A stretch of 20,000 nt of DNA from Bacteriovoracaceae bacterium (GCA_018649885.1 JABIHA010000086.1:119059-139058); one strand, 5' to 3'; shown: positions 6,665-10,843, numbered from the stretch's first letter. The notes: generated by a model not told the origin, from the sequence alone. Translations and numbers: made by a program.

Positions 6665-9175
6665 ATGCATATCTCACACAATCAGTGGGCAAAGAAAGTG
6701 CTATTTTTCATGATATCACTACTCATTTCAACTCAATTGGCCTTTAGTTCTGCAGGAAATATCCCCGTAAGAAAAGTCGACAAGCTATTCAAAAGTTTTG
6801 GTGTAGGTGTTGAATACAGCTATCAGTCTTTCAAAAATTTGGAAAAAGAGTTTGGTAAGAGGCTTACTAAAACCAATGATGATATTGGGACGGAAAACAA
6901 AGCTCTTAAAAAGGCTGAGAGAAAGCTAGAAGAGGCTAAGAAAAAAGAAGTAAAAATTGCCATCAAAAAAGCAAAAAAAGATATTGATAAATATGAAGAC
7001 AAGATTGAGGACTTAGAAGAAGTAAAACTATTTTATCAATATGCCATTATGGCCATGAAGTCAGTTGACCCCATTGGCGGAAGATTAAACTCCCAAAGAA
7101 TTTATGAAATAGAAGATCAACTATCTGAGCTCAAAAAGAAATATAAAAAGGCCATTATCCAAAGAAAGAAAAAACAAAAGGTCTATAAACAAGAAATTGA
7201 AAGTCTTGAAAGACAAAGACATGAGCTTCTAGGTGGAGGGCAAAGTCTTGAGTCCATGATTCAATTTAGTGAGCAAGTTGCTCTAGAAGAGGTTTTTGTT
7301 ATTCAAAAAAGACTTCTCTATGGTCTTATTTCTGAAGAGACAATTAGTTCATTTCCATTTTTTAAAATAATCTTCTCTCTTTTTCATCAGTTTGAAACCT
7401 ATGTTGACTATATAAACCCTGAAGATATTCATTCAATTATTGATAAAGAACAGGCCTTAAAAGAAGCTGGCTATTTAAAAGACCCAGAGACTTTTGGTCC
7501 CATTTCATTCGACCAGATTTCTCAAATGAGTTATGAGCAAATCTCAGAACTAGATGTTTCACCAAGAAACCCTGTATGGCATACAAAGAAGTATATGGCC
7601 GAGCACCAAAATCCTTATAGTGAATTTGAAACTTGGGTTGAAGACAGTGTTCAAAGTGAGATTTCTGATAAATACAAAGAGAAGTACCAAGGGGAATACA
7701 AATTAAAGAAAGCTAGAAAAGTATTATTCTTTAGTAAAATTAAGTCTAATGATTCAAATCCTAAAATCAACTCAAAGGATGCATTTGGTTATTCTTGGAA
7801 GGTTAAGTGGGGATCTGAAACACAATCAGAAACAGTTGCTGGAAGGCTCTACATGAAGCTTGGAGCGAAATACACTGATCCACTTTATGCAGCACCTTTT
7901 ATGAAAAAGAAAAAAGATGGTACTTTCAAAAAAGATCCTCTGACTTTAATTCTGGATAAAAAACCAGCTGATTACCAACCTAGAAAACTTACTGGGAAAG
8001 TGCGCAACTTTGCTAAAGAGTGTAATAAAGTTTACACCACTGAAGAGTTGGTAATTTGTTTAAAGGCATCTAAATATAAATTTAACCTAGCTCCTTATAT
8101 TCTTGAGAGTGGAACTATCACAGATGCAAATTACAAGGATATCTTAAAAGAGATGCCTAGTGATATCATGAAAAAGAAGTACAAAAAAAGCAAACAAGCT
8201 GGAAGAGACTATGTCCGCTTTGTGAATGCTTCAGTTGAGTTTAGAGGAAGTAATTCCATGCATAAGGGTGGACCAGCTGCCTATTCATCAATGGGTGCTA
8301 ATGACAACAGAGCAGGTAGAGGAACAGGTTTATTCAATCTTCTTATATGGAATATTGATGTAAGAGATCAAAATAATAAAAACTTTATTTTTGAGGGGTT
8401 TGAAAGTGGATCACCTCTAACATATATAGAATCTCAAACTGACCTTGGTGCTACAATGGGTGGGAAATTAGTTTCTGCCAAGATGAATTCATACAAAACA
8501 GATACTAATTTCGTTGAAAGAAAAAGACGAGCAGGCTCAGTTAATGGGATTCAGCACTATAAATTGAAATTTAAGCAGTTTACTCTTTATAGACCGATGG
8601 CCTGGATGGCAGCTTCTCATAGTGATATGCTTTGGATGGCGAAAAAGATCGCAAAGCTTACTGACCAAGATATTGCTGATGCTGTTAAGGTTAGTAAGTG
8701 GCCAAATTTTATGAAACGCGTTTATGAATACAAAATACAAAATAGAAGAAATCGTATTGCTGAGTTATATGGACTTCCGGTTCAGGTTTCAGAAGGTGAA
8801 TTTGTTGCATCTCCTGAGTTAGCAGCACCTAGCTTTAAAAGGAATTTATCAACTGCAAAACTGAGAAGATCAGTTGAAGCGGAGTATGGCCTAGCTGAAA
8901 AGAGTATTGATTTGGCGATGGTCAAAGGTAAGATTATGGATCTTGCTGGTAAGCCTTTGAAGAAGAAATTTCGAGGTGAAAATGGGGAGCTTCGGTTTGT
9001 TGATAAGCTTGTTAAGGATGGGAAAGTTGTTAATTGTGGGAAGACTGTTCTTACGGGGCTTCTGCAAAGTACGCAATTTCCTGCTGGGCTTCAGAGACGG
9101 ACTTCAAGGTTTACGGATAGTCGGGGGTTGAAGGAGTGTTGGTTTGGGCATCATCCTTTGAGGATAATTGAATAA
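6665..9175 (+). CDS. Large secreted Lys-rich protein with N-terminal coiled coil and putative atypical kinase-like domain
   Basis: 836-aa ORF with signal peptide ending AFS and a charged helical region. Motifs NPK...WKVKWG-SETQSE, WNIDVRDQNN and TDLGATMG. Confidence 0.65.
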   Translation: MHISHNQWAKKVLFFMISLLISTQLAFSSAGNIPVRKVDKLFKSFGVGVEYSYQSFKNLEKEFGKRLTKTNDDIGTENKALKKAERKLEEAKKKEVKIAIKKAKKDIDKYEDKIEDLEEVKLFYQYAIMAMKSVDPIGGRLNSQRIYEIEDQLSELKKKYKKAIIQRKKKQKVYKQEIESLERQRHELLGGGQSLESMIQFSEQVALEEVFVIQKRLLYGLISEETISSFPFFKIIFSLFHQFETYVDYINPEDIHSIIDKEQALKEAGYLKDPETFGPISFDQISQMSYEQISELDVSPRNPVWHTKKYMAEHQNPYSEFETWVEDSVQSEISDKYKEKYQGEYKLKKARKVLFFSKIKSNDSNPKINSKDAFGYSWKVKWGSETQSETVAGRLYMKLGAKYTDPLYAAPFMKKKKDGTFKKDPLTLILDKKPADYQPRKLTGKVRNFAKECNKVYTTEELVICLKASKYKFNLAPYILESGTITDANYKDILKEMPSDIMKKKYKKSKQAGRDYVRFVNASVEFRGSNSMHKGGPAAYSSMGANDNRAGRGTGLFNLLIWNIDVRDQNNKNFIFEGFESGSPLTYIESQTDLGATMGGKLVSAKMNSYKTDTNFVERKRRAGSVNGIQHYKLKFKQFTLYRPMAWMAASHSDMLWMAKKIAKLTDQDIADAVKVSKWPNFMKRVYEYKIQNRRNRIAELYGLPVQVSEGEFVASPELAAPSFKRNLSTAKLRRSVEAEYGLAEKSIDLAMVKGKIMDLAGKPLKKKFRGENGELRFVDKLVKDGKVVNCGKTVLTGLLQSTQFPAGLQRRTSRFTDSRGLKECWFGHHPLRIIE

Positions 9176-9402
9176 AAATATAAAGGCGTCTGCCGGAGCC
9201 GATTGCCGGGGCCGGTACCGTTTTCTTTTGCATAGTTATTGGGCCGGTTGAGGGCCTGTAGCAATTCAGTTGAGCTTTTCTTTGAAGATAATTAAATAAA
9301 ATTGAAATGTATTGGTGTCTGCCGGAGCCGGAGCCGATTGCCTGAGCCGTTTTCTTTTGCATAGTTATTGGCTCGGTTGTGAGTCTTTAGCAATCCAGTT
9401 GA
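9156..9402. repeat. Two imperfect tandem ~120-nt direct repeats (9156-9273 and 9280-9402) containing GCCGGA-type hexamer runs
   Basis: Shared blocks CTTTGARGATAATTRAATAAAA, GTCTGCCGGAGCCG, CCGTTTTCTTTTGCATAGTTATTGG and TAGCAATYCAGTTGA. The copies differ by substitutions and by hexamer-sized indels in the GCCG run. Confidence 0.9.
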
Positions 9403-9466
9403 CTAAGTAAAGGCACGCTTCGCTCAAGGCCTTGACTGAGTCGCCTTACTTGCTCTTTTTTGGGGA

Positions 9467-9485
9467 TAACGAGCTTTGCTCGTTA
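9467..9485. promoter_or_regulatory. Perfect 8-bp hairpin upstream of the four-helix-bundle gene
   Basis: TAACGAGC-TTT-GCTCGTTA, 22 nt before ATG 9508. Function unknown. Confidence 0.45.
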
Positions 9486-9507
9486 CATTTTTAGGAAGGA
9501 GAATGAA

Positions 9508-9822
9508 ATGGCATTGTATGACTTTAGGGTTTTTAACTTGGCGACTGATCTTTATCACCGGTGTGAAGAATTGAAGTTGGCTTATCATCTTAGATCTCAG
9601 CTTTCGCGGGCGAGTAGTAGTATTGCACTGAATATTGCGGAAGGGAGTGGGAAACGGACGTTTAAGGATCAGAGACGGTACTTCTATATTGCCTATGGGA
9701 GTTGTAAAGAGACTATTGCTATATTGACTCTAGCTAGGGCCTCAGATCCGCTTCTGCTTGATCTGGCGGATCATGTTGGTGCTTGTTTGTATAAATTATG
9801 TAATCGAAAGGCTCCCTCATAA
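9508..9822 (+). CDS. Four helix bundle protein (23S rRNA-IVP / TIGR02436-like; structural relative of DGR Avd)
   Basis: LRSQLSRASSSIALNIAEGSGK and RRYFYIAYGSCKE match the family signature QLxRAxxSIxxNIAEG...IAxGSxxE. AGGAGA RBS supports ATG 9508 (104 aa). Confidence 0.9.
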   Translation: MALYDFRVFNLATDLYHRCEELKLAYHLRSQLSRASSSIALNIAEGSGKRTFKDQRRYFYIAYGSCKETIAILTLARASDPLLLDLADHVGACLYKLCNRKAPS

Positions 9823-9832
9823 AGGAGTTTTT

Positions 9833-10804
9833 TTATCTGATGATGGCCATTCCAATAGGCCCGGCTCCAACACTTATTGTCGCTTCAACAGTATCTGTAA
9901 CCGTGTTAATGACTGAAACGGTATCACTTCCAAAATTTGTTACATACGCCTTGTTGTAATCACTGTCTACCAGGACATAGAACGGGGTTGTTCCTACTGT
10001 AATTGTGCCGGAGACTATTTTTGAGCTTGTGTGTATAACAGATACTGTTCCATCAGTTTCATTTGTTACATAGGCCTTACTATTGTCACTATTTAATGCA
10101 ATCCATTGTGGAACGGTACCTACAGTGATCGATGTGATCAGGGTACTTGTATTGGTGTTATAGACATGGACATTATTAGATCCTACGTCAGTGACATAAA
10201 GCATGCCTGAACTTGTATCTATTGCTAGCCCATGAGGGTTTGTTCCCATGGCAACTGTAGAGATTTTGGCATTTGTAATCGTATTATAAATATGAATGCC
10301 ATCAGTAAAATCTGAAATATAGGCCGTGTTATTTGTAGAATCTATTCTTATGTCTTGTATATTAGATCCAATCGTAACATTGGCAATTACTGCGTTGTCA
10401 GTTGCTGTGACTGAGTGAATGCCGGTGCCCGTGGAAGAGTCGACACAAAAAAGTCTATTTAAGGAAGTATCCATATCAACTCCACCATTCACATTACCTA
10501 CGGCAATTGTTCCAGAGATGGTCTGAGAGTTTGTATCAATCACCTGTACACTGGTACTGTTTAAATCGCCAACAAATGCTTTTTGGCTAGTTGAAGAGTA
10601 AGTAATGTGTGCAGGTTGGCTGCCAACAGATGATATGGTTTTAGAAACTTTTCTATCAGAAAGACTTACTACTGAAACAGACATATCAGTGAGATTGGTT
10701 ACATAAAGGTATCCAATACCAGAGTCTGAGCCTGGAGGACCGCCTTCTCCACAGGATGTAAAAATGACCAAAATCAAAAACTTCAAGATGATCAAAATTT
10801 TCAT
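9833..10804 (-). CDS. YVTN/YncE-family beta-propeller lipoprotein
   Basis: About seven ~42-aa repeats (LYVTN, KAYVTN..GTVSVI, TITVGxxP). Lipobox IFTSC after MKILIILKFLILV suggests start 10804. Confidence 0.88.
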   Translation of the reverse strand: MKILIILKFLILVIFTSCGEGGPPGSDSGIGYLYVTNLTDMSVSVVSLSDRKVSKTISSVGSQPAHITYSSTSQKAFVGDLNSTSVQVIDTNSQTISGTIAVGNVNGGVDMDTSLNRLFCVDSSTGTGIHSVTATDNAVIANVTIGSNIQDIRIDSTNNTAYISDFTDGIHIYNTITNAKISTVAMGTNPHGLAIDTSSGMLYVTDVGSNNVHVYNTNTSTLITSITVGTVPQWIALNSDNSKAYVTNETDGTVSVIHTSSKIVSGTITVGTTPFYVLVDSDYNKAYVTNFGSDTVSVINTVTDTVEATISVGAGPIGMAIIR

Positions 10805-10843
10805 GATGATTGGACCTTTAGTAAAACACTGCAAAAGAGCATA

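Follow-up and report, generated by a model that had tools for sequence, protein, structure and literature searches.

A stand-alone IVP gene in a Bacteriovoracaceae bacterium, preceded by hexamer arrays and by a leader that likely buries its ribosome-binding site

The stretch of DNA analyzed here (the window, 20,000 nucleotides in length) comes from a Bacteriovoracaceae bacterium whose genome of 5.4 Mb has a GC content of 38%. The locus of interest within this window, which we designate C8, carries an array, hairpin A, a CU-rich anti-SD segment, hairpin B, an SD, and an IVP gene, in that order. These features and the neighboring genes are listed in Table 1.

Table 1. Features of the C8 locus, with positions counted from the first nucleotide of the window.
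Feature	Position	Strand	Remarks
836-aa gene	6665..9175	+	no Pfam family; last ~22 nt are the start of repeat copy 1
Repeat copy 1	9154..9282	+	gene end, A-rich stretch, CCG-hexamer array, 25-nt core, tail
Array 1	9186-9224	+	69% GC
Repeat copy 2	9283..9411	+	diverged duplicate of gene end (CTTTGAAGATAATTAAATAA), array, core, tail reaching into hairpin A
Array 2	9315-9353	+	64% GC
54-nt module with hairpin A	9394..9447	+	hairpin A 9401-9442, stem 9401-9414 / 9429-9442
SD-sequestering helix	9453..9501	+	CU-rich anti-SD CUCUUUUUUGGGG pairs with AGGAAGGAG; hairpin B (9467-9485) nested
IVP (four-helix-bundle) gene	9508..9822	+	104 aa; PF05635, TIGR02436
Weak terminator-like stem	9806..9834	+	CTCC..GGAG plus T7; dG -10.8, z -1.97
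YVTN beta-propeller gene, convergent	9833..10834	-	stop codon 10 nt past IVP stop

The 836-aa gene belongs to a set of 8 paralogous matches in the same genome, and among 60 family genomes it has only paralogue-level matches of ≤38% identity. Its C-terminus (FGHHPLRIIE, then stop) is colinear with that of the paralogue at C54 (FGHRPMALVD, then stop). On the other side, the stop codon of the convergent YVTN gene lies so close to that of the IVP gene that there is no space for a downstream arm. The weak terminator-like stem that the first-pass annotation placed at the gene end is indeed present, running from the last codons of the IVP gene up to the stop of the convergent gene. An inverted repeat flanking the cassette (9139-9155 / 9839-9855, 14 of 17 positions matching) beats 300 of 300 shuffles and lies in coding sequence. 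It was rejected as a cassette boundary because the codons past its left arm are homologous to the C54 C-terminus. An 83-aa ORF on the minus strand (9111-9362) has no Pfam family and was treated as spurious.

As the first-pass annotation had indicated, no recognizable transposase or RT was encountered, nor any integrase, among the 23 window ORFs scanned (43 are listed). A tRNA/tmRNA scan gave no match. At the Rfam gathering score there are no matches in the window, and no rRNA, and the same is true of five sister loci. Between 9100 and 9900, a search at E≤5 yielded only SNORD87 and Trp_leader, both at chance level, and no Gut-1, thermometer, or leader family. None of the PADLOC defence models match the six proteins tested, and no sigma-70-like promoter was found on the plus strand between 8900 and 10000. 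A sigma-54-like GGCACG..GC within hairpin A was set aside because its spacing is wrong, as judged by eye.

Proteins matching PF05635 or TIGR02436 are common across many phyla and have been known since the 1990s from rRNA intervening sequences (IVS), and we know of no function for the stand-alone genes. The protein encoded at C8 belongs to this family and has the Avd-like fold that was initially attributed to it. It scores 64.7 bits against PF05635 (cut-off 33.8) and 66.5 bits against TIGR02436 (cut-off 24), and a sequence search matches it to PDB entry 2GSC (E 3.8e-5). An AF2 model (pLDDT 96) has four helices and a four-helix-bundle fold like those of XCC0516 and BT_0352 (Foldseek TM about 0.8), and it aligns with 2gsc_D at Z 15.8 (rmsd 2.0 over 101 residues) and with 2rld_B at Z 15.7. 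The model also aligns with bAvd of a diversity-generating retroelement (DGR; 8ub8_C, Z 13.1, rmsd 1.9 over 98 residues) and with 4DWL (Z 11.4), where Z values of 11-13 are within the range of generic helical bundles. A family member from X. campestris is reported to be a homopentamer (PMC4990558).

The first-pass annotation also drew attention to two imperfect direct repeats of about 120 nt, the first beginning inside the last codons of the upstream gene, with a shared 25-nt core and with runs of hexamers that vary by whole units. Each of these points is correct. The two copies span 129 nt apiece, and a gapped alignment matches them at 98 of 121 ungapped columns (81%) with a score of 74, whereas 500 shuffles averaged -91 and reached at most -31. 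Similarity is arranged in blocks of 63 nt (84%), 36 nt (78%), and 22 nt (91%) at a spacing of 124-135 nt. Copy 2 has one extra GCCGGA and copy 1 has six extra bases, and thus the indels are whole hexamers. The core, CCGTTTTCTTTTGCATAGTTATTGG, is found at 9218-9242 and 9347-9371, and 14 nt of it also occur on contig C63. Its perfect identity in copies that otherwise are 81% identical hints at constraint on the repeat itself, and we estimate the chance of such an identical 25-nt run at about 1 in 10.

The array hairpin is terminator-like in copy 1 only. Array 1 forms a hairpin (dG -18.3) that has UUUUCUUUU and a U-run on its 3′ side, and a terminator scan flags 9204-9217 plus CCGTTTTCTT within it, with the larger hairpin being no better than GC-rich shuffles of the same composition (z -0.6). 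Array 2 has no fold (z +1.57), and the fold of the whole 361-nt region is unremarkable (z -1.0 on the plus strand and -1.4 on the minus strand). The full repeat has no other occurrence in the genome or its relatives, and a DNA search of 60 relatives with 9156-9832 gave one 61-nt match inside the coding part (G001), with the repeat absent. Parts of it do recur in addition to the core fragment, as a 31-nt array segment is present with 97% identity at two sites on C63. On that contig, a 629-aa gene is followed by a CCGG array of this sequence family, which makes a strong hairpin with a T-run (z -3.8).

Ancestral codons of the 836-aa gene are included in the duplication. Because copy 1 starts within the codons that are colinear with the C54 C-terminus, the repeat can be understood as a tandem duplication of the gene end plus the GC-rich array hairpin. 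The 129-nt direct repeat is therefore a local duplication and probably not a dedicated repeat RNA, and the earlier proposal that its copies are a purpose-built noncoding RNA is not supported, given an ancestral gene end in copy 1, an array that folds in only one copy, and a full repeat that is unique.

Two hairpins follow the repeats, again as first described. The 54-nt module containing hairpin A is 100% identical to a sequence upstream of the paralogue at C5, despite the C5 protein being only 31% identical to that of C8. Related versions are present at the paralogous locus C20, at the metagenome locus L122, and in the relative G078. Compensatory changes are seen at 2 of the 12 stem pairs of hairpin A, at 4 of 7 pairs of hairpin B, and at 6 of 19 pairs of the leader consensus (four sequences). 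Hairpin B together with the SD helix has a dG of -21.1 and a z of -4.5, with none of 200 shuffles being as stable, and a second estimate gives a z of -3.5. By our reading, 7 of the 22 pairs in the SD helix are G·U, so that this helix is confined to the sense strand; the minus-strand fold retains only a short inner stem. The minimum-energy fold joins the segment 3′ of hairpin A to the SD in four of five related leaders (C8, C20, L122, and C5, but not G078). At C8, a sense-strand-only helix joins the CU-rich segment to the SD around hairpin B, and the hairpins likely keep the IVP gene untranslated by burying its ribosome-binding site. The description of the region as structured consequently holds for hairpin A, through covariation, and for hairpin B with the SD helix, but not for the repeat overall or its arrays.

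A covariance model of the leader (R1), as the first-pass annotation had proposed, was built from three loci of this genome (C5, C20, and C8). In the 5.4-Mb genome, where 150 of 4027 first-look candidates were scored, R1 matches only these loci, all upstream of IVP genes, and among 100 foreign loci it has one match, in G078, upstream of an IVP gene. In these searches, the leader is restricted to IVP genes. An exact scan with an 18-mer of hairpin A returned 51 stretches from many phyla (by our estimate ~35 are expected by chance), none of which has an IVP ORF within 1.2 kb. The near-chance rate and the lack of IVP neighbors indicate that the element is not widespread.

The layout of array, hairpin A, hairpin B, and IVP gene is shared by C20, L122 (whose protein is 75% identical), and G078, and this sharing, along with a leader model exclusive to IVP loci within the genome, bears out the original suggestion that array, hairpins, and gene are one recurrent unit. 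At C20, the arrays sit in a divergent intergenic region with no upstream gene to terminate, and termination therefore cannot be the general role of the arrays. There are only 8 CCGG clusters in the genome, of which 3, at 2 loci, are within 400 nt upstream of IVP genes. Furthermore, the IVP gene at C83 is preceded by tandem 96-nt array units of its own and followed by an array palindrome. Modules are shared between loci at 97-100% identity.

Short-unit arrays and SD-burying hairpins are also enriched beside IVP genes elsewhere. Of 80 metagenomic IVP loci, 24 carry strict arrays with a period of 6 or 7 nt in their flanks; the background is 16 arrays in 200 kb, compared with 43 kb of IVP flank, and short-unit arrays occur at 6 of 29 IVP genes at loci from the family. 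The sequence of the arrays beside diverged IVP genes varies, while their period of 6-7 nt persists. SD-burying structure (-70..+5, z<-3) accompanies 38% of 42 IVP genes versus 3% of 152 control genes, in a test that used a heuristic choice of start codon and for which 42 of 108 IVP ORFs qualified. Similarity between the two flanks of a gene is seen in inverted orientation at 10 of 85 IVP genes versus 2 of 208 controls, and in direct orientation at 12 of 85 versus 3 of 208. We found no description of the array-IVP pairing in the published literature, and a paper on heptamer repeats of Xanthomonas and Nostoc (PMC4692102) makes no mention of the IVP family.

Given these observations, we favor, with a probability of roughly 0.55, the interpretation that C8 is a stand-alone IVP cassette, which comprises an array hairpin, an IVP-only leader that locks translation, and a weak terminator, and whose 129-nt repeat arose when the junction to the upstream gene was duplicated in tandem. 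The leader would keep the IVP mRNA untranslated through its buried ribosome-binding site, and array 1 might serve the 836-aa gene as a terminator or insulator. For the IVP gene to be translated, the SD helix would have to be opened, perhaps by RNase III cleavage of the duplex. This step is modelled on the stems of IVS elements, in which the PF05635 gene family was first found; RNase III acts on such stems, which carry S23p ORFs (PMC4990558). The duplication may have arisen by array slippage or unequal recombination, and the cassette could be a free-living relative of those rRNA intervening sequences that bear an ORF. It is also conceivable, although we offer this only tentatively, that short-unit (6-8 nt) arrays and a start-burying hairpin mark a class of widespread, undescribed free-living IVP cassettes that are cousins of the rRNA intervening sequences. 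The four-helix-bundle protein would then have its own array or hairpin nucleic acid as its target and might, for instance, be a chaperone in the copying, exchange, or processing of modules. Such an activity would explain the identity of the 54-nt and 31-nt modules between unlinked loci and, if true, would be the first function for PF05635.

One alternative overlaps with this best explanation and differs in claiming that this copy is or was mobile. It holds that the array arm or arms, leader, and IVP gene form a transposase-free mobile or selfish cassette that is moved or copied as a unit, perhaps with help from the protein. The family does have such an appearance, as IVP genes are patchily distributed (16 of 61 genomes, 1-12 matches each) and often lie at contig ends. 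Another IVP subfamily of this genome, the C82 type, is a dispersed repeat, with fragments on 10 other contigs that are 85-99% identical and with a copy on C99 in which the arms are joined without the ORF. Complementary arms enclose the gene at C83 and in the C82 type, and the gene lies between inverted arrays at L124, L125, L151, L156, L167, and C83. Modules common to unlinked loci at 97-100% identity also accord with mobility, as does the mobile-IVS idea of Ralph and McClelland (quoted in PMC4990558). However, the whole C8 unit has no second copy, its left end is ancestral coding sequence, its downstream arm is absent, with 10 nt to the convergent gene, and the 54-nt module lacks target-site duplications as judged by eye. 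Contigs from four other DNA metagenome runs, compared with 8800-10100, carry the same allele without joints or indels, which says nothing on rare variants; the sole one-letter difference is in pieces belonging to the C63 copy. Contigs of other runs end exactly at 9394 and 9447, that is, at the shared module. With no transposase, integrase, or RT in the scanned window ORFs either, we consider mobility of this copy fairly unlikely.

Another option is that the repeat, array, or hairpin transcript is a noncoding RNA bound by an IVP pentamer, much as Avd binds DGR RNA; it could serve in autoregulation or act as a cofactor. The exclusive co-location of the leader with IVP genes, the period kept by sequence-divergent arrays beside diverged IVP genes, and the superposition of the IVP model on bAvd of the DGR ribonucleoprotein would all fit such an arrangement. 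Yet no Rfam family matches, the structure of the repeat region is not above that of shuffles, array 2 is unfolded, and the Z values in question are also typical of generic helical bundles. We consequently view an RNA-protein module of this type as improbable.

The hairpins might instead act in DNA, with A, B, or the array palindromes serving as folded single strands that might, for example, form a strand-specific promoter or be a site of recombination. The strong hairpins that precede IVP genes in relatives are near-perfect palindromes with G·U counts of 22/497 on the sense strand versus 26/505 on the antisense strand, and the antisense strand is the more stable one in 13 of 20. This lack of strand bias means that a DNA-level role fits the relatives as well as an RNA role does. 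Moreover, the orientation of the loop relative to flanking genes is inverted between two loci of G031. At C8, however, the G·U pairs limit the SD helix to the sense strand, no -35/-10 pair is seen within the stems by eye, and the plus-strand promoter scan is empty. The TTGACT in the 3′ arm of hairpin A is likewise without a -10 element at 16-18 nt in five leaders (by eye), and a DNA-level function here seems distinctly unlikely. Finally, an ordinary local duplication beside an unrelated small gene, which would account for the inclusion of the upstream gene's end, the uniqueness of the full repeat, and the near-chance occurrence of the hairpin-A 18-mer in other phyla and never beside an IVP ORF, is already disfavored as very improbable by the recurrence of the layout at three other loci, the separate tandem array units of C83, the rarity of CCGG clusters and their concentration at IVP loci, and the enrichment of arrays and SD-burying structure beside the IVP genes of relatives.

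Stand-alone IVP genes thus travel with recognizable cis elements, namely a period-6/7 array, an IVP-only leader, and a buried ribosome-binding site, and loci exchange parts of them. An orphan family thereby becomes open to testing, as its candidate RNA or DNA ligands, its putative translational lock, and a signature for genome surveys are now defined.

Several known systems resemble parts of the stand-alone cassette that we propose. REP/BIME elements, MITEs, and the cyanobacterial heptamer STRR are likewise GC-rich or short-unit intergenic hairpins, some of them at gene ends, and they also have gene-less solo copies, to which C63 and the C99 copy of the C82-type element correspond. Unlike these elements, the IVP arrays have a very low copy number (8 CCGG clusters in 5.4 Mb), differ by locus yet keep their 6-7 nt period and IVP neighbor, and have no linked RAYT or transposase.

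Leaders that sequester the SD can be opened by melting, as in the fourU and ROSE thermometers, or by RNase III, as in RNase III-activated mRNAs. As in such leaders, the SD at C8 is held by A-U and G·U pairs to a U/C-rich strand, and the hairpin is located just upstream of the start codon. In contrast to them, C8 has an extra upstream hairpin and an array, and the helices of its relatives reach a dG of -50 kcal/mol over 27-30 bp, which is too stable to melt as a thermometer would.

The four-helix-bundle fold is shared with Avd of DGRs (4DWL; ribonucleoprotein 8ub8; Z 11.4-13.1, generic-bundle range), and Avd-like DGR proteins match the Pfam family PF05635 (PMC10053308). The order of gene end, repeat, and Avd-like gene also has a superficial likeness to a DGR. 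This reading was rejected because there is no adjacent RT, the mismatches are not adenine-specific (of 23 between the copies, copy 1 has an A at 5 and copy 2 at 8), and copy 1 is coding for only ~22 nt. The only RVT_1 match in the genome is on contig C141, away from all six IVP loci.

ORF-bearing 23S rRNA intervening sequences, such as those of Coxiella burnetii (with S23p) and Leptospira (PMC4990558), encode the same protein family. The C8 cassette differs from them in being outside any rRNA gene, with protein-coding neighbors, in having arrays that are direct and upstream only rather than flanking and inverted, and in having a stem that does not enclose the ORF but buries the SD. As in the intervening sequences, however, the gene is associated with stable stems such as RNase III cleaves, its distribution is patchy and selfish-looking, and the sister loci C83, C82 type, L124, and L125 hold it between complementary arms.

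The locus is best supported as a stand-alone, IVS-like cassette built around an IVP gene, a member of the PF05635/TIGR02436 four-helix-bundle family first found in 23S rRNA intervening sequences (IVS). The window gene belongs to this family, and it represents one of six PF05635 loci in the source genome. The AlphaFold model of the encoded protein (pLDDT 96) is a four-helix bundle whose closest structures are XCC0516 (2GSC, Z 15.8) and BT_0352 (2RLD, Z 15.7). It also superposes on bAvd, the accessory protein of diversity-generating retroelements (DGRs), with Z scores of 13.1 (8ub8_C) and 11.4 (4DWL). Thus, the Avd/IVP-like gene proposed in the first-pass annotation agrees with both the profile scores and the predicted fold. 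Of the other features proposed there, the two hairpins preceding the gene were located, and the terminator-like stem at its end is present and, on folding, weak.

Coordinates of the repeat, leader, and gene features in the window
Feature	Position	Details
Repeat copy 1	9154-9282
Repeat copy 2	9283-9411
Identical 25-nt core, copy 1	9218-9242
Identical 25-nt core, copy 2	9347-9371
Array 1 (6-nt units)	9186-9224	69% GC
Array 2 (6-nt units)	9315-9353	64% GC
Hairpin A	9401-9442	stem 12-14 bp, form AGT(A/C)AAGG..CCTTGACT
Hairpin B	9467-9485	3' of CU-rich segment, 5' of SD
IVP gene	9508-9822	104 aa; PF05635 64.7 bits, TIGR02436 66.5 bits, both above cut-off

Three of the six PF05635 loci, namely those on contigs C8 (the window locus), C5, and C20, share a leader in which hairpin A, a CU-rich segment, hairpin B, and the SD follow in that order. 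Folding of the window sequence pairs AGGAAGGAG with the CU-rich anti-SD segment (9453-9465) around hairpin B, which yields a 22-bp helix (dG -21.1, z -4.5; z -3.5 with flanks). When the other leaders are folded, the outer SD pairing is likewise part of the minimum-energy structure at C20, C5, and L122 (a metagenome relative), and it is absent in the family relative G078. Compensatory changes occur at 6 of the 19 consensus pairs when four leaders are aligned. The covariance-model check that had been suggested was carried out with the leader. The model matched only C8, C5, and C20 in the source genome (150 of 4027 first-look candidates scored), and its one match among 100 further IVP-bearing loci, 326 kb in total, lies directly upstream of an IVP gene in G078. 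Folding, statistics, and recurrence show that the SD is buried in a duplex.

Arrays recur beside IVP genes as well. Only eight CCGG clusters (≥3 closely spaced CCGG) exist in the source genome, and three of these, at two loci, lie ≤400 nt upstream of IVP genes. The C20 locus carries two arrays in inverted orientation, and because they reside inside a divergent intergenic region, they are not terminators there. Upstream of the L122 gene (protein identity 75%), a perfect palindrome of CCG hexamers, 33 bp long, precedes a hairpin A plus B leader like that of the window, and a period-6 array lies upstream of the IVP gene in G078. The proposal that repeats, hairpins, and gene form one compact unit is thus supported in part: it holds for array, hairpins, and gene, which recur together at C20, L122, and G078, whereas the repeat itself is only a 129-nt duplication.

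Several further sequence features were observed. A downstream hexamer array in the metagenomic relative L125 (580-660) continues the IVP reading frame, so that the protein gains a TDTDTDTDSVSDSDS tail. In the window, GGCCCGGCTCC (9858-9868) is the reverse complement of the array word GGAGCCGGG, which has only nine occurrences genome-wide. GGCCCGGCTCC is situated 36 nt past the IVP stop, within the last YVTN repeat of the convergent downstream gene (codons G-A-G-P), and may be either what is left of a downstream arm or simply the outcome of coding constraint. A 17-nt inverted repeat (9139-9155 and 9839-9855; 14/17 complementary, a value reached by 0 of 300 shuffles) exactly brackets the repeat-plus-gene unit. 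Because both arms are coding and the left arm is ancestral, we tentatively read this repeat as chance.

The two direct copies, their identical core, and the whole-hexamer indels that distinguish array 1 from array 2 are all present as originally described, and in a gapped alignment the copies match at 98 of 121 ungapped columns (81%), well above shuffles. The upstream 836-aa gene is part of a family that has eight matches in the genome. Its closest paralogue (C54, 51% identity) terminates in ..FGHRPMALVD, compared with ..FGHHPLRIIE for the 836-aa gene, with equal length and conservative substitutions. Because the two C-termini are colinear, the codons where copy 1 begins are ancestral. Judging from these alignments, CTTTGAAGATAATTAAATAA in copy 2 is the duplicated gene end, the counterpart of the terminal codons in copy 1, and the 129-bp repeat is a tandem duplication of the segment that comprises the gene end, array, core, and tail. 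Prior to this event, the tail (..CAATYCAGTTGA) was directly continuous with hairpin A. The conspicuous repeat is thus ordinary.

Array 1 folds (dG -18.3) and has UUUUCUUUU directly 3' of it, and for this reason it was flagged as terminator-like. Array 2 has no fold (z +1.6), and folding of the whole repeat region revealed no more structure than in shuffles. The window DNA is present in marine metagenome runs; the same sequence is found in contigs from four other runs, one contig spanning 9015-9413 with zero differences. We favor reading the duplication as a side effect of slippage within the array or of unequal recombination. A second, independent case is shown by the fourth paralogue (C83), where two 96-nt units that are 88.5% identical lie in tandem, each with a 6-8-nt-unit array of another sequence, and where a palindrome of those array units is found downstream of the gene. 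A DGR TR/VR pair was rejected because the copy mismatches lack adenine specificity and because the only reverse transcriptase match in this genome (5.45 Mb, 38% GC) is on another contig (RVT_1, G000:C141:14327-14899, inside a 445-aa open frame).

Some pieces of the locus are shared with other sites. At C5, the 54-nt stretch around hairpin A (9394-9447) recurs with 100% identity, yet the C8 and C5 proteins are 31% identical, and a 31-nt array piece is 97% identical at two C63 sites, one of which is a strong hairpin with a T-run downstream of a 629-aa gene. Therefore, modules have been exchanged between loci or kept identical. The reading of the locus as a mobile cassette partly overlaps with that of a stand-alone, IVS-like cassette. 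Many IVP genes in family genomes lie <350 nt from a contig end, a position that points to multi-copy elements of near-identical sequence.

Other arrangements were also noted. Contig C63 has two gene-less GTCTGCCGGAGCCGATTGCCGG array copies in opposite orientation (G000:C63:32900-32990 and 35918-35965; L035 2900-2990 and 5918-5965), the second being the strong hairpin with its T-run. They bracket ~3 kb containing the 629-aa gene and a 265-aa gene that we take to be TIGR02147-like. A second IVP subfamily (~120 aa, MKVIHHEK..) occurs as a dispersed repeat flanked by inverted arms of ~100 nt (C82:18730-19310, C36:20235-20820). Copies or fragments of the C82 type, 85-99% identical, occur on 10 other contigs, several at contig ends, with fragments located on C115, C143, C79, C49, C55, C99, C85, C140, and C22. 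The C36 gene is a pseudogene with two stops, and the C99 copy has its arms joined without an ORF, like a MITE. Many IVP genes in family genomes G001, G004, G022, G031, G075, G078, and G082 are paired back-to-back or face-to-face, 60-200 nt apart. At two divergent pairs, L045 (G031:C1) and L059 (G031:C6), a perfect ~22-bp palindrome supplies both ribosome-binding sites, and its 13-nt loop has opposite orientations at the two pairs with respect to the flanking genes they have in common, as though arm-arm recombination had flipped it.

Two further readings concern the level at which the hairpins act: as an RNA bound by the IVP protein, or as a DNA-level hairpin. The window SD helix is sense-strand only because seven of its pairs (read by eye) are G·U, and the opposite strand retains only the inner stem. 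In relatives, the IVP hairpins are near-perfect palindromes with no strand bias, so an RNA role is not the sole possibility there. Coincidence, a further rival reading, has to be set against the persistence of the pattern outside this clade: strict period-6/7 arrays flank 24 of 80 metagenomic IVP loci (background, 16 arrays in 200 kb) and 6 of 29 family loci; upstream and downstream flanks are alike at 10/85 IVP versus 2/208 control genes (inverted) and 12/85 versus 3/208 (direct); and strong structure over -70..+5 is found for 38% of 42 IVP genes versus 3% of 152 controls.

In the stand-alone, IVS-like cassette, the array hairpin would form the upstream edge, and in the window it probably also serves to terminate the 836-aa gene. 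Next would come a leader specific to IVP genes that keeps the ribosome-binding site in duplex, with the IVP gene and then a weak terminator as the remaining parts. The buried SD would block IVP translation, and this block might be relieved by cleavage or melting. RNase III would be a natural candidate because, according to PMC4990558, it cleaves the stems of those rRNA intervening sequences in which genes of this family reside.

The literature consulted, including PMC10053308, PMC10910872, PMC4692102, and PMC4990558, describes neither arrays nor SD-locking leaders next to IVP genes that stand alone. New here are the quantified controls for the pairing of IVP genes with arrays and hairpins, and the clear demonstration that the 129-nt repeat is a duplication only. 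For this orphan protein family, the cassette architecture is a genuine, recurring feature that is as yet undescribed. In the tests applied, the locus came out as neither an rRNA IVS nor a DGR, and it fits no Rfam family. The window cassette works most like an ORF-bearing IVS that has been freed into the chromosome, yet it lies outside rRNA.
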